Below are positions 1,145 to 63,216 of a stretch of DNA of 64,000 bases, in pieces. Source of the DNA: a virus (taxonomy: Duplodnaviria; Heunggongvirae; Uroviricota; Caudoviricetes); the IMG/VR virus record IMGVR_UViG_2740892441_000001. The stretch is one strand, 5' to 3'. Position 1 is the stretch's first letter; the number at the start of each line of letters is the position of its first letter. The notes under the pieces were generated by a model, which was given only the letters and a program-made list of their open reading frames with translations, was not told the origin of the DNA and searched no databases. Made by a program: the position numbers and the translations under genes.

Positions 1145-1235
1145 GCGAATGCAGCCGTTTCCCGAAAAAATCCTGGCCGTTTCCCGTCGGCTCATGAATG
1201 CGTTCCTCGCCGTTTCTGAAAATTTCCCTGCGGCA
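1145..1235. repeat. three direct copies of GCCGTTTC(C)CGAA-like motif
   Basis: Motif recurs as a 6-copy array at about 4785-4910. Confidence 0.4.
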
Positions 1236-1279
1236 GCTGGTGGCTATAGAGAAAGGGCCGTTTCTGGCCCTCTTCTCAG

Positions 1280-1762
1280 TTACACGCCATCAAGGATGTG
1301 GATGCGGTTGCTTGCGTATACATTCAGCATAAAGTTAGCGCAAAACAGTTTCCATGTATCAACGCCAGCGGTATACGTAATGTTTTTGCATTTAATCGCA
1401 TTGTTGGCGATCCGCATCCCCTGCGATACTGCTTCATCGTCGGAAAATTTGAACGACGATTGAGTTTTAATCCAGACAGAAATCTGCGTAGCGAACTCAA
1501 TCAGCTTGGACTGGCAGAATCGCCCGGAGCGCACCGGAAAGACGAACGTTCCGAATCCAGAATTTACCACATACGCTTTCTCAAATACCCGCGAGTAACG
1601 ACGATTGCCAATGATGTCGCGTGCAATAATGCATTTTTCTTGTGCTGACAGTTCTACCGTCTCATTGTCGCGCCATGCACCAAGTACTCGTTTTTCAATG
1701 TCAGAGAACGTTACAGCGATATTGCCATGTGCGGGTGCGTTTACAGTAGCGATAAAATTCAT
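1280..1762 (-). CDS. hypothetical protein
   Basis: 160 aa ORF; AAGGAAA RBS before ATG; conserved promoter-like motif immediately upstream. Confidence 0.55.
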   Translation of the reverse strand: MNFIATVNAPAHGNIAVTFSDIEKRVLGAWRDNETVELSAQEKCIIARDIIGNRRYSRVFEKAYVVNSGFGTFVFPVRSGRFCQSKLIEFATQISVWIKTQSSFKFSDDEAVSQGMRIANNAIKCKNITYTAGVDTWKLFCANFMLNVYASNRIHILDGV

Positions 1763-1844: not shown

Positions 1845-1932
1845 GTTGCGGTAGCCGGACGGGAACAGGTGGGTTTTTCGGTTGCCTGGAGGTAAGAGGT
1901 TGGTGTTTTTAGCCTGCGGGAAACAGGATGGT
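1845..1932. repeat. about 80 bp repeat element (GGTAGCC..AGGTGGGT..TTTTCGGT..GCCTG..AAGAGGTTGGT..GTTTTT), second copy at 5505-5590
   Basis: Two copies alignable by eye; each looks like an internal tandem duplication of a ~30 bp unit. Confidence 0.4.
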
Positions 1933-1937
1933 CATTT

Positions 1938-3622: not shown

Positions 3623-3934
3623 TCAGGCTATTGCCATCACTGATGCTCTCTGAATCTCTTGCTGGGCCACGCGGTTAACTTCCATCAAAGCCAGTTCGAG
3701 CTGATGTTCCGGCCACATTCTTTGAAACGCCATCCAGCCTTTTCCACGCTGGCGGCGAACATTCATTACATAACGAGTAAAGGTGTTTTTATCGAAAGAC
3801 ACCGCTGTTTCACGGAACAGACGAATAGAGGTTCCATTGGCAACGATGTCCAGCAAAGTTAATTGAGCAACCAGCGCAGGCTTCTCTTTTCTCTTCTGGT
3901 CTTTGTCCAGACCAAGAACCAATGATTTTTTCAT
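3623..3934 (-). CDS. hypothetical protein
   Basis: Start refined to ATG with GGAG RBS (103 aa); promoter motif upstream. Confidence 0.45.
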   Translation of the reverse strand: MKKSLVLGLDKDQKRKEKPALVAQLTLLDIVANGTSIRLFRETAVSFDKNTFTRYVMNVRRQRGKGWMAFQRMWPEHQLELALMEVNRVAQQEIQRASVMAIA

Positions 3935-3986: not shown

Positions 3987-4087
3987 AAAACGGCTACAAA
4001 GCATATTGATCAGGTGCATGAGCGATATGCAGGTTCTTCCCTGCGGCTATAGAGAAATTAAGCCAGCAATGCTGGCTTTGGTTGGGG

Positions 4088-4417
4088 TTACTCGAATACT
4101 TCAAGAAACTCCTGAACGTCCCAATGCTGGACGAGGTGAAGATAGACCTTAGAAATCACGTCATTTTCGCTATCGCATGTGAAGTAGTACTTCTGGCTGC
4201 GGTTGTATGTGTCCACACAAAATTCGCTCATATCCATAAAGTCAGCATCTTCACCCATGTCGCAAATCATCAAAGCAGGTGCGTCATCACGAGTCATCAG
4301 CTCAAGCACCCACCGCGAATTGATCAGAGTGGAAGACCAACCTTCTAACTCATAAAACTGATCAAACTCTTTTTGAGTTAATTTCTTGATTTGGTTGATG
4401 TCGATATTTGCAAACAT
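4088..4417 (-). CDS. hypothetical acidic small protein
   Basis: 109 aa, D/E-rich; promoter motif upstream. Confidence 0.5.
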   Translation of the reverse strand: MFANIDINQIKKLTQKEFDQFYELEGWSSTLINSRWVLELMTRDDAPALMICDMGEDADFMDMSEFCVDTYNRSQKYYFTCDSENDVISKVYLHLVQHWDVQEFLEVFE

Positions 4418-4429
4418 AAATCAATCCTT

Positions 4430-4478
4430 AAACAACATGTTTTCTTATTGGTGTTATTATCGCAATAACGCATAGGCG
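4430..4478 (-). promoter_or_regulatory. conserved early-promoter-like motif
   Basis: AAACAACATGTTTTCTTATTGGTGTTATTATCGCAATAACG. Confidence 0.35.
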
Positions 4479-4784
4479 AAAAAGGATTTTATTCCGGTGA
4501 ATGTGGTTTTGGCAGTGAGTTTTCAGGTTCAGTACCGAGTACACTTTTTACATTATTCTGATTTAGTAGCCGAAGGTGGCTGGTGGGCAGAATAATCATC
4601 TCCCCGAAAACCTACTGAAATCGATTGTGACCCGCTGACTGTCTGGCACAATTACGCTGTAGTTGGGCATTCAGAGGGAATCCAGCGGTAAGTAAGTTCG
4701 CCTGCACGTGAGCGCCTCTCTTCTTCCCGCACATTACAGGTGGATAGCCGCAACTCTCCCTCTCGCTATACCGGTACGCCGCCG

Positions 4785-4910
4785 TTCCTGAACCGGCATC
4801 GAGCCTTTTCCCGAAATCCACACAGGCAACTCGACCGTTTCCCTGAAAACCTCCAGCCGTTCCCCGAAGGCAACCCAGCCGTTTCTGTAGCGGGATGCAG
4901 CCTTTTCCCT
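4785..4910. repeat. six tandem ~20 bp repeats (A)GCCGTTTCCC(T)GAA
   Basis: Direct repeats visible by eye; same motif at 1145-1235. Confidence 0.5.
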
Positions 4911-5089
4911 GTATGGACCGAAGGCTGACCGTAGGGGTGTTACGGGGGATAAAATCAGTAGTTGAATAAATACGAAAAAGGAGGCGACACCCCTCCTTCC
5001 CTCCCCACTTATACATACCTGGCTTCTTCGCTATGCATGTTGTGTTTTCTTCGTGTTTTATCTGTTTCAACCTCTCTATAGGCGTTAAT

Positions 5090-5500
5090 GCTCACTCCTT
5101 CCAGAACGTTCTATACGGCAACTATTTCTGTTGGTGAATTGGGTGTGTTGTTTTCTCTGTCGGTGTATGTGGTTTCGTTCGTTTTGCGGTGGTTCTTCTA
5201 TAGGGTGTTCTCGTCGTTTTGGTGATTGTTCTTCTCCGTCTATGGAGTAATGGCAGGTGGGCGATTCCTTTCGTTATTGTGTTTGAGTTGTTTGTCTGGA
5301 GTGCGTGAAGGGCTTTTGTAGTTATTCGTGTATTGGGTAATGGCGTTTCCCGTGATTGTTCTGTTTCGTGTCTTTTGGGATTGAAGAATCCTTGCGGTAA
5401 CAGGCTTCGTTGGGGTTTCAGTGATTCTGGTGTTTCTTCGCTGTTTGGGTAATGGCGTGTCGTGGGTATCGCGCGTATGAATGTTTTCGGATTGCCTGTG
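5090..5500. repeat. G+T-rich low-complexity tract (plus strand), ORF-free
   Basis: Extreme strand compositional skew; the only ORFs are low-complexity minus-strand artefacts. Confidence 0.45.
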
Positions 5501-5504
5501 AAAG

Positions 5505-5590
5505 TTAGGTTGGTTGTCCGGTAGCCTGGGAAGAAGAGGTGGGTCTTTTCGGTAGCCTGCCATAAAGAGGTTGGTTGTTTTTGGGAATGG
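5505..5590. repeat. second copy of the ~80 bp repeat element seen at 1845-1932
   Basis: Alignable by eye to 1845-1932. Confidence 0.4.
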
Positions 5591-5980
5591 CATATGCGTT
5601 ATTTAGTTGTTTTGTTATGCCTGAAAATAAGTTGTTTATATGGTTATGTAACGCAACGGGAACGATTTTGAGCGTGTGTTTTTGTTGGTAGTGTGTTGGG
5701 TCGTCTGTGGTGAAAATTGGACGCTGTGGCGCTGTCTGCTGCGTAGGATTGCGGGTATAAGAAGTAATGTGTGAAAACGTCAATTTTTTAGACCAAATCG
5801 GGTGAAAGCGTTGACGTTTCGTTGATCTGTTATTCAGTTGTTTTCTTGTTTGTATAAACAACTATAACCTATTGATATTTAAGGGTGTGATTGCAGGTAT
5901 GGAAGGGGAGTAGTGGCGATCAACGGATTCTTATAGAAAAGAATCAAATTGTGACCGCCATTATCAATAAGTTGCAACCG

Positions 5981-6550
5981 TTAGTTGTTCAGATAAACAT
6001 TTGGAACACGGACGTAGAAGTTCCTGTCACCGGTAAGTTCCAGAGTAATGTTAATGTCATTACCATTGTCTAGTGTAGCCGTTGCTCTATAGAACTTATC
6101 CGTCACCTTGTCCTCTATTGTCACCTTCATACATTTTGGTGCAGTCGAACCGTTATTCTCTTTCAGAATAGTTGTCACGAGAGGGCAGGCTGCTTCTTCA
6201 AGAGCAACCTCGTCCTTGTGTGGGATGCCGATGAAGATAATCCAAGCCAGCGACGCAACGATTATGATAAATGGCACTCTGCTGCCTTTTGTAATAGTCG
6301 CGCGCTTCCAGAGATAGACAGGCAGGAGGAATACCCCCCATAGAATTGAAGGTGGTTCACAGCCAGACTCCGATAGAGCCATTCTGTCAGCTACTAACAA
6401 ACCGATGGTAGTTACACCCCCAATTATAATAGCGTAATTGGTATACTCTTCCGGCAATACTCCAAAGAAGAAAGGCATGAACGCTAGAATCCACGCATAA
6501 ATGTTATTCAGAGGTTTTGTTTGTTGGTTCTGGGTTTCCATCACATCCAT
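5981..6550 (-). CDS. hypothetical membrane protein (several hydrophobic segments)
   Basis: 189 aa with multiple hydrophobic stretches. Confidence 0.5.
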   Translation of the reverse strand: MDVMETQNQQTKPLNNIYAWILAFMPFFFGVLPEEYTNYAIIIGGVTTIGLLVADRMALSESGCEPPSILWGVFLLPVYLWKRATITKGSRVPFIIIVASLAWIIFIGIPHKDEVALEEAACPLVTTILKENNGSTAPKCMKVTIEDKVTDKFYRATATLDNGNDINITLELTGDRNFYVRVPNVYLNN

Positions 6551-6702
6551 TCCATCACATAAAAATCGCTTTTATATATTATCAATTTTCTCACTTGTAT
6601 AACCTAAATACGCATCCGTTTATCAATCCACCTTCCACAAACATCAGCTTTGGCTATGAAAAATGACAATCTCAAAGTGAAACCATTATCATAGGATAAC
6701 GA

Positions 6703-6888
6703 TTAGATGAGATGGTCTAATTCATCATCTATCATCGCTTTAACACTTGAGTCATTAACCCCGTATTGATTTATGAGCCGTTTCAGCTCCGGTGAAAACT
6801 GAAGGTAGATATCGTGGGCGTTTTTCACTGTAGGTTCAACGCCACGCATTTCAAGCGCCTTTAGTAGATATGAGTCTTCTTTAAGCAT
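6703..6888 (-). CDS. hypothetical small protein
   Basis: 61 aa ORF in operon context. Confidence 0.35.
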   Translation of the reverse strand: MLKEDSYLLKALEMRGVEPTVKNAHDIYLQFSPELKRLINQYGVNDSSVKAMIDDELDHLI

Positions 6889-6924
6889 AAATTCTCCGTT
6901 ATCTAGTATGAAGCGATTGCCGGA

Positions 6925-7233
6925 TTACCATTGCCAGCACTCAAGCCCTTCAACGACCGGTGCGCCACAATCAAAATGTACAGAGTCAAAGCCTACATCA
7001 AGTACTTTCTGAATGTTCGCAATCGCGCCCTCGGATATACCATATCGACGCAACTCATCTTTCCAGTCATCGTCCTGTAACCCGGCGTGGACAATGCAAC
7101 CGTACTCAATTTGTGAAACCCAATCCAGCTCATTGCTTGCGATCATGAATCGGCGAGCATCTTCCTCTGATGTATGAGATGAGCTGATCAATGCCACCTG
7201 GTAGGCTTGGGTAATGTTCAACATTTCAACCAC
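6925..7233 (-). CDS. hypothetical protein
   Basis: 102 aa ORF; promoter motif pair immediately upstream. Confidence 0.5.
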   Translation of the reverse strand: MVEMLNITQAYQVALISSSHTSEEDARRFMIASNELDWVSQIEYGCIVHAGLQDDDWKDELRRYGISEGAIANIQKVLDVGFDSVHFDCGAPVVEGLECWQW

Positions 7234-7238
7234 TCCGA

Positions 7239-7303
7239 AACAATTTGTTTTCTTATGTGGCTTATTATCTCAATCAACAAAAGGCAGAAAACAAATTGTT
7301 TTA
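7239..7303 (-). promoter_or_regulatory. two adjacent copies of the conserved promoter-like motif; the hairpin that usually follows is missing where host-like DNA begins
   Basis: AAACAATTTGTTTTCTTATGTGG...AAAAGGCAGAAAACAAATTGTTTT. Confidence 0.35.
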
Positions 7304-7337
7304 GGGTTTGTTAAAGTCAGAAGGGATTGTGTCTATA

Positions 7338-7372
7338 TGAAAATGCCCAGCGTATTGCCGGGCATTGTGAAG
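7338..7372 (-). terminator. metG terminator hairpin (AATGCCC..GGGCATT + U-run on minus strand)
   Basis: GC stem followed by TTTT on the metG sense strand just after the stop codon. Confidence 0.5.
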
Positions 7373-7385
7373 AATGGTTGCTTAA

Positions 7386-9419
7386 TTACTTAACCTGGTG
7401 GCCAGGTTTAGCACCAGCATCCGGGCTTAACAGGAAGATGTCTTTCCCGCCGGGGCCAGCAGCCATCACCATGCCTTCGGAGATACCGAAACGCATTTTA
7501 CGCGGAGCCAGGTTAGCCACCATAATGGTGTGACGGCCAATCAGTGCCTGTGGGTCTGGATAAGCGGAACGGATGCCTGAGAAGACATTGCGTTTTTCAC
7601 CGCCGAGATCCAGCGTCAGGCGCAGCAGTTTGTCAGAACCTTCAACAAAGTCTGCGTTTTCGATCAGCGCCACGCGCAGGTCAACTTTGGCAAAGTCGTC
7701 AAAGGTGATGGTTTCCTGAATCGGGTCGTCTGCCAGCGGGCCAGTAACTGGCGCGGCAGTAGCTTTCACTTCTTCTTTAGACGCTTCCACCAATGCTTCC
7801 ACCTGTTTCATGTCGATACGGTTATACAGTGCTTTGAACGGATTCACTTTATGGCCCAGCAGCGGTTGCTGGATACCATCCCAGGTCAGTTCTGTATTCA
7901 GGAATGCTTCTGCACGTTCAGTCAGTTTCGGCAGTACCGGCTTCAGGTACGTCATCAGCACGCGGAACAGGTTAATGCCCATAGAGCAAATCGCCTGCAG
8001 ATCGGCATCGCGTCCTTCCTGCTTCGCCACCACCCACGGAGCCTGTTCATCGACATAGCGGTTAGCCAGGTCAGCCAATGCCATGATTTCACGGATAGCT
8101 TTACCAAATTCGCGGCTTTCCCATGCTTCGCCAATCACTTCAGCGGCATCAGTAAAGGTTTTGTACAGTTGCGAGTCAGCCAGTTCGCTTGCCAGCACGC
8201 CGTCAAAACGCTTGTTGATAAAGCCTGCATTACGGGAGGCCAGGTTAACCACTTTGTTCACGATATCGGCATTCACGCGCTGAACGAAATCCTCCAGGTT
8301 GAGATCGATATCATCAATGCGCGAAGAGAGTTTCGCAGTGTAGTAGTAACGCAGGCTGTCGGCGTCAAAATGATTCATCCAGGTGCTGGCTTTAATAAAG
8401 GTGCCGCGAGACTTGGACATCTTCGCGCCGTTCACCGTCACATAGCCGTGAACAAACAGGTTGGTCGGCTTGCGGAAGTTGCTGCCTTCCAGCATGGCAG
8501 GCCAGAACAGGCTGTGGAAGTAAACGATATCTTTACCGATGAAGTGGTACAGCTCGGCGGTGGAGTCTTTCTTCCAGTATTCATCGAAGCTGGTAGTGTC
8601 GCCGCGCTTGTCGCACAGATTCTTGAAGGAACCCATGTAGCCAATCGGTGCGTCCAGCCAGACGTAGAAATATTTACCCGGCGCGTTCGGAATTTCAAAA
8701 CCGAAGTAAGGTGCGTCGCGGGAGATATCCCACTGTTGCAGACCAGATTCAAACCACTCCTGCATTTTGTTTGCCACCTGCTCCTGCAACGCACCGCTGC
8801 GGGTCCATGCCTGCAACATTTCGCTGAAAGAGGGCAGATCAAAGAAGAAGTGTTCAGAATCACGCATTACCGGCGTAGCGCCAGAAACTACCGATTTCGG
8901 CTCAATCAGTTCAGTCGGGCTGTAGGTCGCGCCGCAAACTTCACAGTTATCGCCGTATTGATCTGGCGCTTTACATTTCGGACAGGTGCCTTTCACAAAA
9001 CGATCCGGCAGGAACATGCCTTTTTCCGGGTCGTACAACTGAGAGATAGTGCGGTTTTTAATAAAACCGTTCTCTTTCAGGCGAGTATAGATAAGCTCAG
9101 ACAGCTGGCGGTTCTCTTCGCTGTGCGTCGAGTGATAGTTGTCATAGCTGATGTTAAAGCCTGCGAAATCAGTCTGGTGTTCCTGGCTCATTTCGCCAAT
9201 CATCTGTTCCGGTGTGATACCAAGCTGCTGTGCTTTCAGCATGATCGGCGTACCGTGGGCATCGTCGGCGCAGATGAAGTTGACCTCGTGGCCGCGCATT
9301 CGCTGGTAACGGACCCAGACATCAGCCTGGATGTGCTCCAGCATATGGCCGAGGTGGATTGAGCCGTTAGCGTACGGCAGCGCGCACGTCACCAGAATTT
9401 TCTTCGCGACTTGGGTCAT
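7386..9419 (-). CDS. metG: methionyl-tRNA synthetase
   Basis: 677 aa translation matches E. coli MetG along its length as recalled from memory ([31 protein letters not shown]...KPGHQVK); start set at the MTQVAKK ATG, upstream extension of the track ORF judged spurious. Confidence 0.95.
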
Positions 9420-9576
9420 AGTAGGCATTACTTCTTTGTAGTGAAAAGGGGCTTGATAGTAACAAAATGGCCTTATGTCTGCCATGTGATAACAGCATTT
9501 CTCATAAATGATTAAATGTCGTAGCTGGAGTACACTACAAGGCGACAATTGCGCAAATTAAAATAAAGGAGACGGG

Positions 9577-10714: not shown

Positions 10715-11104
10715 CTACATCACAGGACAATCATCAAACTCGCCACTTCTTGCGTCGTTGATAATGTGAGTGATCACACCAAACACGGCATTGCTGCCCG
10801 TGCATCCATCATCATCCTTTGGCAATGCTTCCTTCTTACCAGTTCTTAAATCCTCCAGATGCTGACGTGGATACTTCCGGTATCTTTTTACGCGATATTC
10901 CCCATCCAGAGCACATACAAGAAGAGATCCATCAACAGGAGTGAGTGAGGAATCGACCACCAGCAATGCACCCTGCAATATTCCCTCACGATGATGACTA
11001 TCAGCCGCCCTCATGAAGTAGGTCGCTGAAGGATGTCTAATTATCTGCTGATCAAGAGAAATACGGCTCTCTGCATAATCCGCCGCAGGAGATGGGAAGC
11101 CCAT
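10715..11104 (-). CDS. humD: UmuD'-like S24-family protein lacking the cleavable N-terminal arm (HumD-like)
   Basis: Starts M-GFPSPAADY, aligned to Gly25 of E. coli UmuD (the RecA-mediated cleavage point); in-frame stop 5 codons upstream excludes an N-terminal arm; Ser and Lys of the S24 dyad retained; LexA box upstream. Confidence 0.7.
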   Translation of the reverse strand: MGFPSPAADYAESRISLDQQIIRHPSATYFMRAADSHHREGILQGALLVVDSSLTPVDGSLLVCALDGEYRVKRYRKYPRQHLEDLRTGKKEALPKDDDGCTGSNAVFGVITHIINDARSGEFDDCPVM

Positions 11105-11208: not shown

Positions 11209-11258
11209 AATAAGAAAAGGCAGAAAACAAATTGTTTAAGGCCACTAGTTGTGGCCTT
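11209..11258 (-). promoter_or_regulatory. promoter-like motif plus hairpin (AAAAGGCAGAAAACAAATTGTTT + AAGGCCAC..GTGGCCTT)
   Basis: Same composite element as at 15399-15441. Confidence 0.35.
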
Positions 11259-19947: not shown

Positions 19948-19995
19948 AAACAAGTTGTTTTCTTATTGGCTTTATTGTGATGTGACATAAAAGGG
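19948..19995 (-). promoter_or_regulatory. conserved early-promoter-like motif
   Basis: AAACAAGTTGTTTTCTTATTGGCTTTATTGTGATG. Confidence 0.35.
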
Positions 19996-40593: not shown

Positions 40594-40692
40594 AATCGTT
40601 TTTTCAGTAGTTATTGGCCGATGCTACGATAACTCATTAGGCATACCTTAATCTGCATTTGCCTGTTTTACTTATCCCAGTTATCCACTGGA

Positions 40693-40752
40693 TAGATCCA
40701 AATAAGAGATCCCAAGTAAGATCAAATAGAAGATCCAAAGAGATCCCCGATC
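40693..40752. promoter_or_regulatory. GATC (Dam site) cluster, six sites in about 60 bp
   Basis: GATC repeated at 10-13 bp spacing; typical of Dam-controlled origins. Confidence 0.45.
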
Positions 40753-40792
40753 GCCTCTAGCCGTTGCGGTTACTGGTCTGAAAGGGTGTTGC

Positions 40793-40900
40793 CATCCACT
40801 ATGGAGAGCAAAGAAACCTCTGTAGAGAGCTGAATAACCGCTATGAAGAGTAAAACAACCACTCTGGAGAGCTGTATATATCCACTGTAGAGAGTAGAGC
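40793..40900. repeat. iteron array 1 (about five ~21 bp direct repeats, ACCACT.T.GAGAG-type)
   Basis: Direct repeats at regular ~21 bp spacing. Confidence 0.5.
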
Positions 40901-41006
40901 ACATTGTCTTTTATGGATAACTTAATGACTTAATTCTTCATTAACATACTGATATACATAGATATATTTTAAACTCTACTCTTAGTCATGATTCTTATGT
41001 CCTTAA

Positions 41007-41015
41007 ATATCCACA
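41007..41015. promoter_or_regulatory. DnaA-box-like ATATCCACA
   Basis: 8/9 match to TTATCCACA. Confidence 0.4.
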
Positions 41016-41053
41016 GAAGAGTAGAGTTACCTGTTCTTGAAATCCTCTGATTT

Positions 41054-41062
41054 TTATCCACA
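41054..41062. promoter_or_regulatory. DnaA box TTATCCACA
   Basis: 9/9 match to consensus. Confidence 0.5.
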
Positions 41063-41171
41063 GGCCCGATCCAGTAATTCAGATCACAAAGAGAACCAAA
41101 GAGACCCATAAAGACCCAATAAGATCCCCGCCCACCTCAAACCGTTGTGCCATCTGCCTTCAGACATGATC

Positions 41172-41300
41172 GATATCCACTATAGAGAGCGAATAATCCA
41201 CTATAGGGAGCAAAGCAACCACTATAGAGAGGAGAAAAACCACTATAGACGGTAGGATAACCGCTGTGATGAGTGCTACTATCCACTGTAATCAGCAAAG
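41172..41300. repeat. iteron array 2 upstream of repA (six ~21 bp direct repeats ATCCACTATAGAGAG-type)
   Basis: Regular direct repeats ending about 35 bp before the repA start. Confidence 0.6.
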
Positions 41301-41336
41301 GCCACCAAAGCCGTCGAATAACAAGAGACATTTGGA

Positions 41337-42392
41337 ATGAGCGAAAACGGCAATAAAAACATAGCGATCGTTGAAGCATTTTCAGAAACAGATAAAAAGA
41401 CAGGCGAAGTTGTTACGTTGGTTCCTAACACTAATAACACTGTTCAGCCTGTTGCTTTGATGCGTCTGGGCCTCTTCGTTCCGACGCTGAAATCGACATC
41501 CAGAGGAAGAAAGGGGCAAATGGTCTCTATGGATGCCTCTGCTGAACTCAAACAGCTGTCTCTGGCAAAAGCCGAAGGGTACGAAGACATAAGGATCTCT
41601 GGCCTTCGGCTTGATATGGATAACGACTTTAAAACGTGGGTGGGAATAATCCACGCGTTTGCCAAACACAAGGTCGTTGGCGATACTGTCACGTTGCCGT
41701 TCGTTGAGTTTGTAAGGCTGTGTGGCATTCCGACCGCCAGGTCATCAGCGAAGTTACGCAAACGCCTGGACAGTTCGCTAAGCCGTATTGCCACAAATAC
41801 CATCTCGTTCCGTAGCAAAGGCTCTGATGAGTTTTACGTAACGCATCTTGTGCAAACGGCAAAATATAGTGTCAAGCACGATACGGTCGAACTGAAAGCA
41901 GATCCCAAGATTTTCGAACTCTACCAGTTCGACAAAAAGGTTCTTCTGCAACTCCGGGCTATAAACGAACTCTCAAGAAAAGAATCCGCTCAGGCGCTTT
42001 ATACTTTTATTGAAAGTTTGCCGCCTGATCCGGCACCAATATCACTAGCCCGTTTACGCGCCAGACTTAATCTGACAAGTCGCACTATTACTCAGAATGC
42101 GACGGTAAGAAAGGCTATGGAACAGCTGCGAGAGATAGGATATCTCGATTACACGGAAGTTAAGCGCGGAAACTCGGTCTACTTCGTCATCCACTATAGG
42201 CGGCCAAAGTTACGCCAGGCACAAATATCAACAAAAATCGATAATGATGAGACGGAATATAGCCTCCCAGATGAGAATCAAGATGACATTATCGACGTTG
42301 TGCCTGACGAAAAAGAAGGCAAAATGGTCATGTTGAGTAAAGAAGAACTGGCGCTTCTCGAAGAGTTGCGCAAGGCAAAGACTCGCAAATAG
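41337..42392 (+). CDS. repA: plasmid replication initiator RepA (P1/P7-type, iteron-binding)
   Basis: [16 protein letters not shown] and [19 protein letters not shown] resemble P1 RepA as recalled; flanked by iteron arrays. Confidence 0.8.
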
Positions 42393-42404
42393 CCCAACCA
42401 CTGT

Positions 42405-42875
42405 AGTTAGTAGTAAGGCTCACTATCCACTGTAGTGAGCCTTACTTATATCTGTAATTCGCTATCCACTATAGTGAGTATCGTTATCTGTTGATAACCA
42501 CTGTAGGCAGTAGAATGCAAATACTGAATCAAATGTTAGTGATCACTAACACTGATGAAACAAGGGCTGCGAGGTTAGTGGTCACTGGGTATCTTGGAAA
42601 ATTTACTGTCTATAGTGGTTGTTGTCGCCCTCATCTTTGAGCGTATCCACTGTGGCGAGTGGATATCCACTGAAAACAGCAAAGGCTTACTCACCATAGT
42701 GGATACCCGCTGGACATCTCACTCCAATACTCACCATAGTGGTTGTTTGATGCGAATGAAAGGCTGTCTACTCGCTACAGTGGTTAGCAGATATGTAGGA
42801 AGAGAGGACTGCAGACCACAGTGGATAATGAGCTGATACGAATGCGGTGAGCTGGCTACTCACCGCAGTGGTTGG
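42405..42875. repeat. iteron array 3 downstream of repA (about 12 copies of CCACT(A/G)TAG in both orientations)
   Basis: Same core as the upstream iterons; resembles P1 incA-type copy-control arrays. Confidence 0.6.
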
Positions 42876-42880
42876 TGCTA

Positions 42881-43093
42881 TTAGTGTATTTTCTTCAACA
42901 GGCCCCAAAGTGTTCCGGCTTTTGTAGTCAGTTTTCCTGTTTCTGGATCGTACATACGCCATTCACGCCGCTGGTGGACGATATACCCATCTTCACGTTC
43001 CAGACGCTCAAGAATGCCAGGCTGCTTGAAACCCTTAGCACGCCAGTATCCGCTTGTTTTCTCGATTTCCAGACCTGCCAGTGTTAATGCCAT
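42881..43093 (-). CDS. hypothetical small protein
   Basis: 70 aa ORF. Confidence 0.3.
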   Translation of the reverse strand: MALTLAGLEIEKTSGYWRAKGFKQPGILERLEREDGYIVHQRREWRMYDPETGKLTTKAGTLWGLLKKIH

Positions 43094-44416: not shown

Positions 44417-44458
44417 AAACAAATTGTTTTCTTAATAAGATAATTGCGATAAAAAAGG
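44417..44458 (-). promoter_or_regulatory. conserved early-promoter-like motif
   Basis: AAACAAATTGTTTTCTTAATAAGATAATTGCGAT. Confidence 0.35.
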
Positions 44459-51945: not shown

Positions 51946-52241
51946 GTAAAGGTGTCTGGCATCGTCTGGTTCGTTAACGTTTACTAAACCAATGGTGACA
52001 AAAATTAGTTATCTTTGAAAAATAAAGGTTGCATGAAAAGAAGGGGTATGCGTTAATAGCATCGTTGGTTTGCAATACAGACCTTATGTAAGCAGTTTTA
52101 GTAAAGCAGTCTCAGTTCAGTGTTATCTTCTGATTTCCCTTCTTCGTGAGTCTCCTCCTTAAGTGCCTAAGTAAGTCCCAATCTATACAGATCAAATTCT
52201 CGCCGCACTATGTGGCTCACAAAATTAAGAAGGTAATATCT

Positions 52242-52457
52242 ATGTCTAATAAAATGACTGGTTTAGTAAAATGGTTTAACTCTGATAAAGGCTTTGGCTT
52301 TATTTCTCCTGCTGATGGCAGTAAAGATGTTTTTGTACATTTTTCGGCAATTCAGAGTAATAATTTCCGCACTTTGGAAGAAGGCCAGCAGGTCGAATTC
52401 TCTATCGAGAATGGGGCTAAAGGCCCAGCAGCAGCAAATGTCGTTGCTCTAAGTTGA
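52242..52457 (+). CDS. cspA: cold-shock protein, CspA family
   Basis: [38 protein letters not shown]...[10 protein letters not shown] matches CspA-family proteins; long ORF-free leader upstream. Confidence 0.8.
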
Positions 52458-52733
52458 TTCAACGCTGATGATCCTCATTTCTACAATAACGAAGACGGTG
52501 TAAGCCTGAGTGGATAGATTTGTAGGATTGTACAAGTTGAATAAATTAGCATGGTAAGGCCATGCTAATTAAATCGACACAACGGCCAGTTTATTCCATA
52601 AAAGTGAATTGCCCATTGTGGCGAAATGCGGGGTTGCCGCATGAATAGTCAAAGGCAGAAGCTAACTGCCGGCATGGCAAAACAAAGTGCGTAAGAGGAG
52701 TGACTTCCTCAACAAGCGTCATAATTCTTTATA

Positions 52734-62968: not shown

Positions 62969-63055
62969 TGGCGGAGAGTAATGGAATCGAACCATCATCG
63001 CTTGCGCAATGGGACGGTTTTCAAGACCGCTTGAGCACCATGCTCTCTACTCTCC
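62969..63055 (-). tRNA. tRNA-Ser(TGA)
   Basis: Hand-folded: acceptor GGAGAGT/ACTCTCC, anticodon loop CTTGAAA, long variable arm, T-loop TTCGATT, encoded CCA; 87 nt. Confidence 0.7.
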
Positions 63056-63063
63056 AATTGTGT

Positions 63064-63139
63064 TGGTGCCGGTTAACGGATTCGAACCGCTGACATCCTG
63101 CTTACAAGGCAGGTGCTCTACCAACTGAGCTAAACCGGC
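63064..63139 (-). tRNA. tRNA-Thr(TGT)
   Basis: Hand-folded: acceptor GCCGGTT/AACCGGC, D-arm GCTC-AGTTGGTA-GAGC, anticodon loop CTTGTAA, T-loop TTCGAAT, encoded CCA; 76 nt. Confidence 0.8.
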
Positions 63140-63141
63140 AT

Positions 63142-63216
63142 TGGCGATGGTGGGTGGATTCGAACCACCGACCAGTTGGTTAACAGCCAACTGCTCTACC
63201 GCTGAGCTACACCATC
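63142..63216 (-). tRNA. tRNA-Asn(GTT)
   Basis: Hand-folded: acceptor GATGGTG/CACCATC, anticodon loop CTGTTAA, T-arm GGTGG-TTCGAAT-CCACC, encoded CCA; 75 nt. Confidence 0.8.

Follow-up and report, generated by a model that had tools for sequence, protein, structure and literature searches.

The stretch of DNA analysed here (IMG/VR record IMGVR_UViG_2740892441_000001; 64,000 nt, referred to below as the window) is part of an E. coli phage-plasmid of the SSU5/pHCM2 type, sharing 97% identity with Escherichia phage Cyrano and with about 190 E. coli plasmids. Within a long run of minus-strand genes, as seen in the annotation of the close relative pCTX (NZ_CP047004.1), it carries a conserved non-coding interval at 4418-5980, which is the subject of this report and which is bounded by genes at 4088-4417 (-) on its left and 5981-6550 (-) on its right. 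The interval contains an array of six degenerate direct repeats (A repeats), a tract of extreme G+T content punctuated by short boxes, two units of a 31-bp repeat (B repeats) and, towards its right end, palindromic and promoter-like elements; both kinds of repeat recur at a partner locus 3.6 kb to the left, around a gene for a 160-aa protein. We put forward, tentatively, that the region may be a cis-acting replication or control locus for the lytic cycle of the SSU5-type phage-plasmid backbone.

An earlier note on this DNA, made from the letters alone, had seen no credible open reading frame (ORF) here, and the region 4418-5980 is indeed non-coding. In RefSeq E. coli plasmids PGAP calls no gene between the two flanking genes, and other annotators have placed differing hypothetical ORFs on differing strands. 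The ORFs that can be drawn mechanically, at 4612-5070 (-), 5240-5593 (-) and 5505-5861 (-), are each broken in close relatives. Indels of 1, 2 and 11-12 nt interrupt every candidate ORF in a set of 14 sequences that share more than 85% identity with the window, and at 5385 all 14 have one nucleotide more than the window. The same 14 sequences show clean indels of 22 nt and 31 nt, corresponding to the loss or gain of exactly one A unit or one B unit. The repeats must therefore be real units, no reading frame is conserved, and a protein-coding gene is rejected. A coding test based on codon-position periodicity was underpowered, and it was the indels that decided the question.

That the region is under selection, and is not spacer DNA, is well supported. 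Related loci were gathered in two independent ways, through a conserved DNA word and through the conserved neighbouring protein encoded at 3623-3934. Among the far relatives (less than 85% identity, n = 35), positions 4400-6000 are alignable in 56-90% of cases, at about 75% identity, whereas 17-18% of them keep the left gene (4000-4400), only about 10% the right-hand genes (6000-7400), and none has metG. Since the region is kept in these relatives while its flanking genes are swapped, and since the order of its parts is conserved, the earlier note was right to set it apart from spacer DNA; only 3-4 of 74 related contigs have it absent or truncated. An alignment of 24 sequences shows near-invariant blocks alternating with drifting spacers of variable length. 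The most distant lineages have, in this order, A repeats, CTTATAC, three to five GTAATGGC boxes, one to three B repeats and the palindrome AAACAAnTTGTTT, followed on the right by TATAAG, GTCAA-N27-TTGAC, GCGATCAACG and CTTATA, and the same order is found in Salmonella, Klebsiella, Enterobacter and gut-metagenome relatives. The distance from A to B (about 570-690 bp) and the length of the G+T-rich tract (0.7-0.85 kb) are also held across lineages.

The A array (4779-4912, plus strand) consists of six GCCGTTTCCC-type direct repeats, most of them spaced at 22 bp, with a purine- and G-rich minus strand. Its 8-mer core, CCKTTYCY, stands at 4782, 4804, 4835, 4857, 4879 and 4901 (spacings of 22, 31, 22, 22 and 22). 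The plus strand of the whole 64 kb has just 16 matches to this 8-mer, including these six, and they cluster again at 1155-1258 and nowhere else. The six tandem copies of about 20 bp that had been proposed are thus real, although Tandem Repeats Finder reports no array there, because the copies are too degenerate. The array is conserved in all lineages, a 22-nt deletion of one whole unit being seen in close relatives, and it fits what is expected of iteron origins, namely direct repeats of about 17-22 bp in helical register. The B repeats (5520-5581, plus strand) are two 31-bp units of the form GGTAGCCTG-N5-AAGAGGTKGGT-TTTT. The pattern GGTAGCCTG-N5-AAGAGGTKGGT occurs twice there and three times at 1850-1937, with no occurrence in shuffled sequence, which bears out the proposal of a second copy of an element at 1845-1932 and identifies what is shared as these 31-bp units. 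Other lineages have one to three B copies, and close relatives gain or lose a whole 31-nt unit.

At the partner locus the A array (1150-1270, plus strand, copies at 1155, 1177, 1210 and 1258) lies just downstream of the gene for the conserved 160-aa protein (1280-1762, minus strand), immediately past its terminator, and the B array (1845-1937, plus strand, three units) lies just upstream of the promoter of the same gene. Identical 16-mers are common to the two loci. In the window and about 100 kb of a related plasmid, the A and B motifs are limited to these two places; in viral contigs and metagenomes they are confined to the SSU5-type phage-plasmid family, and in viral contigs outside the family the A-repeat pair pattern gives chance-level matches only. 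B sites in gut-metagenome contigs are paired either 31 bp or 3.0-3.6 kb apart. All A and B copies are co-oriented, in registers of 22 bp (two helical turns) and 31 bp (three turns), which fits arrays of protein on one face of the DNA. These helical registers, together with the placement of B upstream of a promoter, favour protein binding at the level of DNA. A type III toxin-antitoxin system (ToxI-like) was also considered for the repeats and rejected: such a system has tandem repeats, a terminator and a toxin gene in succession on one strand, and neither array is followed by a gene in this way, the order at the partner locus being terminator, repeats, promoter, gene.

Between the two kinds of repeat lies an unusual part of the region. 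G+T reaches 73.8% in the 400 nt from 5151 onwards, where windows over the 64 kb average 50.3% (sd 3.7), and this segment is the top outlier at about 6.4 sd. The strong skew described in the earlier note is therefore confirmed, and its extent is larger than the proposed 5090-5500: the keto-skewed tract spans about 5050-5900, with 65-75% G+T on the plus strand (T 40%, G 31%, A 15% and C 14% over 5050-5750) and an A+C-rich, nearly structure-free minus strand. The skew recurs at the loci of SSU5, Klebsiella and Enterobacter and at most of the 74 protein-anchored loci. In Salmonella, Klebsiella, Enterobacter and gut-metagenome relatives a tract of 0.7-0.85 kb with 70-74% G+T contains GTAATGGCG boxes. 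Substitutions in the tract among near relatives are 61% transitions and 15% G<->T, figures that single out neither selection nor mutation bias. Cumulative skew over the whole window shows no replication-type inflection at the locus, the helical periodicity of T-tracts (a test for curved DNA) does not rise above shuffles, and Chi-like words in the tract are not enriched beyond composition. Nearest-neighbour energies place the most favourable 300 nt of the whole window for a minus-sense RNA:DNA hybrid at 4712-5011 (z about -3), covering the A array and a neighbouring purine G cluster; in 31 of 50 related loci, too, the minimum coincides at least in part with the A array, a modest effect, and a plus-sense hybrid is unfavourable over the tract.

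From left to right, the remaining parts are as follows. The left edge of the non-coding interval (4418-4500, minus strand) is the promoter and leader of the gene at 4088-4417, with an extended -10 TGCGATAAT at 4450-4464 and a palindrome AAACAAnTGTTT at 4430-4445, kept in an 8-way alignment. Right of the A array, a conserved core at 4938-5014 comprises GTTACGGGGGAT, TTGAATAAATACG, the pyrimidine tract CCCCTCCTTCCCTCCCC (the G cluster of the minus strand) and CCCACTTATAC; a terminator-like hairpin with a T run at 4975-5001 on the minus strand is present in the window lineage and, from the alignment read by eye, is not conserved in SSU5 or Klebsiella. The alignment then shows a conserved block CGTTCTATACGGCAACTATTTCTGTTGGTGAA at 5103-5137 and three plus-strand boxes, Box 1 TTCTTCTCCGTCTATGGAGTAATGGCAGGTG at 5229-5260, Box 2 ending in GGGTAATGGCGTT at 5322-5350 and Box 3 ending in GGGTAATGGCGTG at 5434-5461, with a fourth, weaker box GGGAATGGCA at 5579-5592; the boxes within the tract are nearly invariant in the 24-sequence alignment. 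A GTTATTTAGTTGTTTTGTT module and the palindrome AAACAAnTTGTTT (5624-5636), degenerate in the window and perfect in most relatives, together take up 5596-5640 and are followed by another conserved block of the alignment, AACGCAACGGGAACGATTTTGAGCGTGT, at 5648-5680.

The segment 5753-5819 holds GGGTATAAGA (5753-5762) and two inverted half-sites, AAAACGTCAA (5774-5783) and TTGACGTTT (5811-5819), with the spacer TTTTTAGACCAAATC. An inverted repeat had been proposed near 5790-5840; it is present, slightly further left, with arms at 5775-5783 and 5811-5819. Both arms are conserved, their central pair being mismatched in 13 of the 24 sequences without compensating change, and we read the half-sites as possible back-to-back -35-like TTGAC elements, 27 bp apart with an invariant spacer, or as a protein site. 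A third TTGAYA stands near 5965. A position-matrix scan across relatives finds conserved -35-like TTGAC elements in both directions, including a minus-strand TTGACG at 5783-5778, with weak -10s. Beyond them come an A+T-rich promoter-like module GTTATTCAGTTGTTTTCTTGTTTGTATAAA (5826-5870), containing the most A+T-rich 40-mer of the region, and a right boundary block GTGGCGATCAACGG-TCTTATAGAAA-TGTGACCGCCA (5912-5965), which is conserved though the right-hand gene varies by lineage. The palindrome AAACAAnTTGTTT(TCT) is also found elsewhere, with 20 sites in the window against 0.39 expected (among them 1783-1798, 4430-4445, 7238-7253/7286-7301, 11222-11237, 19948-19963 and 44417-44432). These sites are placed in the leaders of about ten minus-strand early genes, behind the extended -10, or beside terminator hairpins, and the palindrome is probably the operator of a global early-gene regulator.

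The earlier note had suggested a cis-acting locus (lytic origin, packaging site or centromere-like array) or a long non-coding RNA. The non-coding, non-spacer character of the region stands, while packaging, a centromere and a structured RNA are disfavoured. As regards RNA, an Rfam 15 covariance search gave nothing at the gathering score, the sole match with E<5 being at chance level (19.8 bits against a threshold of 40.2), and a tRNA scan found none in the region. Sliding RNAalifold over 24 diverse sequences, on both strands, gave a structure conservation index below 0.4 in every 150-column window. In ten LF82 lysogen conditions, CYRAN_103 of Cyrano (equivalent to 5506-5862) stays at the RNA-seq floor value (PMC9928086 Table S1), and the cargo gene just upstream of it, CYRAN_102, is expressed in the same transcriptomes (PMC9928086), which cover lysogens and not induced cells. 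The lack of an Rfam match and of a conserved fold, the inverted-repeat arms without covariation and the silence in lysogens together speak against a structured non-coding RNA.

The locus is distinct from the plasmid's own origin, oriV. The plasmid replicon occupies 40681-42860, with repA at 41337-42392, TTATCCACA-type DnaA boxes at 40681 and 41054, and more than 25 21-bp iterons AACCACTATAGAGAG upstream of repA and, in both orientations, downstream of it in an incA-like array. Scored with a RepA-iteron matrix, the boxes of the locus stay below 5 bits, against 16-25 bits for real iterons, and a RepA plasmid origin is rejected for the locus: the repA origin lies at 40.7-42.9 kb (some 35 kb from the locus in the pCTX annotation) and its iterons are different. 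One lone iteron-like word, AACGCCTATAGAGAGG at 5071-5086 (-), reaches 13.6 bits, above the 11.9 bits that mark the 95th percentile for random windows; the part of the tract that holds it is an insertion specific to the lineage, and the match is probably due to chance. GATC clusters and consensus sites for IHF or Fis give nothing conserved or telling in the region. Neither array adjoins a par gene, the ParA-like operon (34.7-35.8 kb of pCTX) being more than 40 kb away, which weakens the idea of a centromere, and the terminase genes are about 12 kb off in pCTX, which disfavours a packaging site.

The phage-plasmid family encodes a T4-like set of replication and recombination proteins, read in pCTX (equivalent to about 12-60 kb of the window): a gp32-like SSB (PF08804), a DnaB-like helicase, a DnaG/Toprim primase, a Rad50/SbcC-like ATPase with a metallophosphoesterase, RecA, RNase HI, a 5'-3' exonuclease, DnaE, ligase, NrdAB, thymidylate synthase and a dihydrofolate reductase annotated DfrA51. 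No recognisable lytic initiator is found among the genes of the phage-plasmid family, and a T4-like set of this kind without one plausibly needs a lytic origin. Chi sites (GCTGGTGG) number 15 in the window against 1.55 expected, and are found at 1236, 1950, 2421 and 4579 (+), at 10957, 14847, 26436, 33099 and 33537 (-) and at 42970, 51139, 55389 and 55543 (+), among others. They change orientation twice, once close to the locus, between 4579 and 10957, and a second time close to the RepA origin, at about 41 kb, which is what replication direction might impose, though the sites are few and gene orientation is a confounder.

On the tentative reading preferred here, the locus would act in cis, on the DNA, in the lytic cycle, and would most plausibly be a transcription-activated lytic origin with a partner site, similar in layout to P4 ori/crr or SPP1 oriL/oriR and in logic to T4 oriF/ColE1. 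The short direct-repeat arrays (A at 22 bp, B at 31 bp and three to five GTAATGGCG boxes) would be docking sites for one or more phage proteins. At the right end, the back-to-back TTGAC -35-like elements and the palindrome of early-gene leaders would keep the locus shut off in the lysogen and have it transcribed upon induction. In the zone of 0.7-0.85 kb sorted into G+T and A+C, neither the opened strand nor a transcript would be able to fold on itself, and this zone could serve as the opening and loading zone of the origin, separate from the RepA/iteron plasmid origin, with the second A/B locus 3.6 kb away as partner site. Protein binding, repressor control, origin function and the direction of transcription are what we infer from this arrangement.

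Several observations weigh against such an origin. The region has no TTATCCACA-type DnaA box with up to one mismatch and no G-quadruplex motif, and there is no strongly A+T-rich unwinding element beside the A array, the most A+T-rich windows lying away from it at 5838-5880 and 5601-5640. No initiator-like gene adjoins the repeats: the proteins of the neighbouring genes are without a family match, searches of Pfam, PHROGs and NCBIfam returning unknown function only, and the 160-aa protein of the partner locus, which has a confident predicted fold (pLDDT 88), matches nothing among solved structures. A plain consensus scan finds no promoter in the region and the predicted -10s are poor. To our knowledge, extreme keto skew is not a property of phage origins. 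The element is, moreover, lost or cut off after the A array in natural variants (three related contigs, L102, L112 and L125), and in one plasmid, pECAZ155_2 (L061), an IS3 sits inside the G+T tract at about window position 5200. An interrupted plasmid and contigs without the element imply that it is unnecessary for plasmid maintenance, and it may be dispensable altogether.

An RNA product is somewhat unlikely and still the alternative to be considered most closely. It would be a lytic-phase, leftward (minus-sense) non-coding transcript of about 0.65-0.85 kb, A+C-rich, poor in G and unstructured, starting near 5745 or 5650 and ending near 4975. By loading Rho it might insulate the conserved early genes to the left from the variable cargo genes to the right; or it might be a sponge or leader that binds a protein through repeated motifs, with the GGA-containing A repeats and the CGCCAUUAC boxes as candidates. 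What is conserved in the tract is strand composition rather than sequence, and the repeats all point the same way as the minus-strand genes around them. C-rich, G-poor, untranslated and unstructured RNA has the classic features of Rho loading, and C outnumbers G by 2.15 to 1 over 700 nt of the minus-sense tract, which has two ATG and one GTG as its potential starts and a mean folding energy of only about -10 to -16 kcal/mol per 150 columns; by sequence prediction it would thus qualify as a Rho loading (rut) region. The conserved TTGACG at 5783-5778 could supply a minus-strand -35 and the hairpin at 5001-4975 an end, seven GGA triplets lie in the minus-sense A array, and expression of CYRAN_102 is followed by a drop to the floor in CYRAN_103. 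Set against this, the sole available RNA-seq, from lysogens, shows the region silent, there is neither an Rfam match nor covariation, and SSU5 and Klebsiella do not conserve the hairpin. The 22/31-bp helical registers and the B repeats upstream of the partner promoter indicate sites acting in DNA, and three families of repeats would be superfluous for an insulator.

A pure transcriptional control region, made of divergent promoters, operators and terminators placed so as to separate cargo genes from early genes, seems decidedly unlikely; the TTGAC elements, the palindrome common to about ten early-gene leaders and the promoter-like module would suit it, and the skew, itself without function, would have arisen by mutation, perhaps because the plus strand is exposed as single-stranded DNA, in keeping with substitutions (61% transitions, 15% G<->T) that give no direct sign of keto selection. 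Yet 1.5 kb far exceeds what such control needs, and neither the maintained tract length and A-to-B distance nor the near-invariance of the boxes inside the tract would be expected of it. Stability or copy control in the lysogen, with the A/B arrays at two sites as centromere-like or pairing sites for a maintenance protein, is very unlikely in our view. Two dispersed direct-repeat arrays do resemble direct-repeat centromeres such as parC of R1 and parC1/parC2 of pB171, and the ParA-like operon of pCTX has no obvious repeat array beside it; against this stand the distance of more than 40 kb from that operon and the lack of an adjoining par gene, motifs unlike RepA iterons, the existence of the IS3-interrupted plasmid and of contigs without the element, and a skewed tract that would be left unexplained. 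Finally, a decayed duplicate of the partner locus (B repeats, promoter, gene, A repeats), its gene eroded to a relic, would preserve the minus-strand order of B, middle and A seen at both loci, with about 580 bp from B to A at the partner and about 610 bp at the main locus. This origin is hardly credible, as tblastn of the 160-aa protein against the tract finds no residual similarity, the region is conserved like core genes while its neighbours turn over, and extreme skew with invariant boxes in every lineage is unexpected of a relic.

The region is widespread. The window matches 265 PLSDB plasmids of about 110 kb each, mostly typed IncFIB and non-mobilizable, and 240 of the 5426 complete E. 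coli genomes carry the full region, in every case on a plasmid. The right-hand 500 bp of the region occur by themselves in 838 PLSDB plasmids of six genera (Klebsiella, Escherichia, Enterobacter, Salmonella, Citrobacter and Cronobacter), where they are almost never annotated, and no paper describing the locus came to light in searches of the literature. Phage-plasmids of the SSU5/pHCM2 type are frequent in Klebsiella, E. coli, Enterobacter and Salmonella, and some members carry resistance genes such as CTX-M-55. In these elements the 1.5-kb region is among the best-conserved non-coding parts of the backbone and is placed between swappable cargo genes, which makes it a concrete candidate for a lytic origin or control switch; its strand-sorted composition is unusual, and accounting for it could be of general interest.

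The surroundings of the locus offer some further observations. Its right side (5981-9548), with a gene for a 189-aa protein (whose Cyrano counterpart is CYRAN_102, expressed in lysogeny), small ORFs and metG, is missing in far relatives and looks like an insertion hotspot for cargo (moron) genes. Just left of the start of the window, a protein annotated as a regulator (L010 8927-9451; pCTX 71026-71550) has a full-length match to Pfam Flag1_repress (E = 4e-80), that is, to FljA, the phase-1 flagellin repressor, an unexpected cargo for a phage-plasmid. Elsewhere, an Rfam match to the cspA thermoregulator (189.7 bits, 52064-52481, plus strand) lies upstream of a cold-shock gene (cspG in pCTX), and a tRNA cluster at 62969-63216 (-) comprises Ser-TGA, Thr-TGT and Asn-GTT, with a tRNA-Tyr also present there in pCTX.

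Among known systems, iteron origins (lambda ori, P1 oriR/incA, F ori2) share with the locus co-oriented direct repeats of about 20 bp, a 22-bp register and a non-coding stretch. It differs in that no initiator gene adjoins or overlaps the repeats, DnaA boxes are lacking and a clear A+T-rich unwinding element is not seen beside the repeats, and the genuine RepA iteron origin of the element lies elsewhere and uses other repeats. The minus-sense tract resembles rut regions and CsrB-type sponge RNAs in being C-rich, G-poor, untranslated and unstructured, with GGA in the A repeats at about 22-nt spacing; it is some ten times longer than a typical rut, has no GGA presented in hairpins and matches nothing in Rfam.

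As is the case for the cis replication regions of phage P4 (ori and crr) and SPP1 (oriL and oriR), which are two-site systems, the same short repeats stand at two places in a single phage genome, separated by a few kb. Here, however, two families of repeats are each shared, the partner surrounds a gene and the main locus a skewed non-coding tract, and there is no known initiator. The R-loop origins of T4 (oriF/oriG) and ColE1 provide another parallel, with promoter-like elements upstream of a non-coding zone, a T4-like replisome with RNase HI and, at the distal end of the locus, a segment favourable to hybrids for a leftward RNA. The T4 unwinding element is about ten times shorter than the zone found here, and the putative RNA of the locus would be unstructured, unlike ColE1 RNA II.

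The vertebrate mitochondrial D-loop and H strand can be compared by analogy only, being an unrelated system: there too, about 0.7 kb lies between conserved blocks and one strand is strongly G+T-rich. In mitochondria the G+T-rich strand is the one displaced as single-stranded DNA, while the skew of the locus may be selected rather than mutational. It is conceivable, if unlikely, that the A+C/G+T-sorted tract is a phage device not described before, a persistent R-loop or D-loop initiation zone for the T4-like replisome, in which the sorting of bases would keep either strand and any transcript from pairing with itself, flanked by protein-binding arrays that the partner site shares. If so, a plasmid-prophage would be using a tract logic similar to that of the mitochondrial D-loop.

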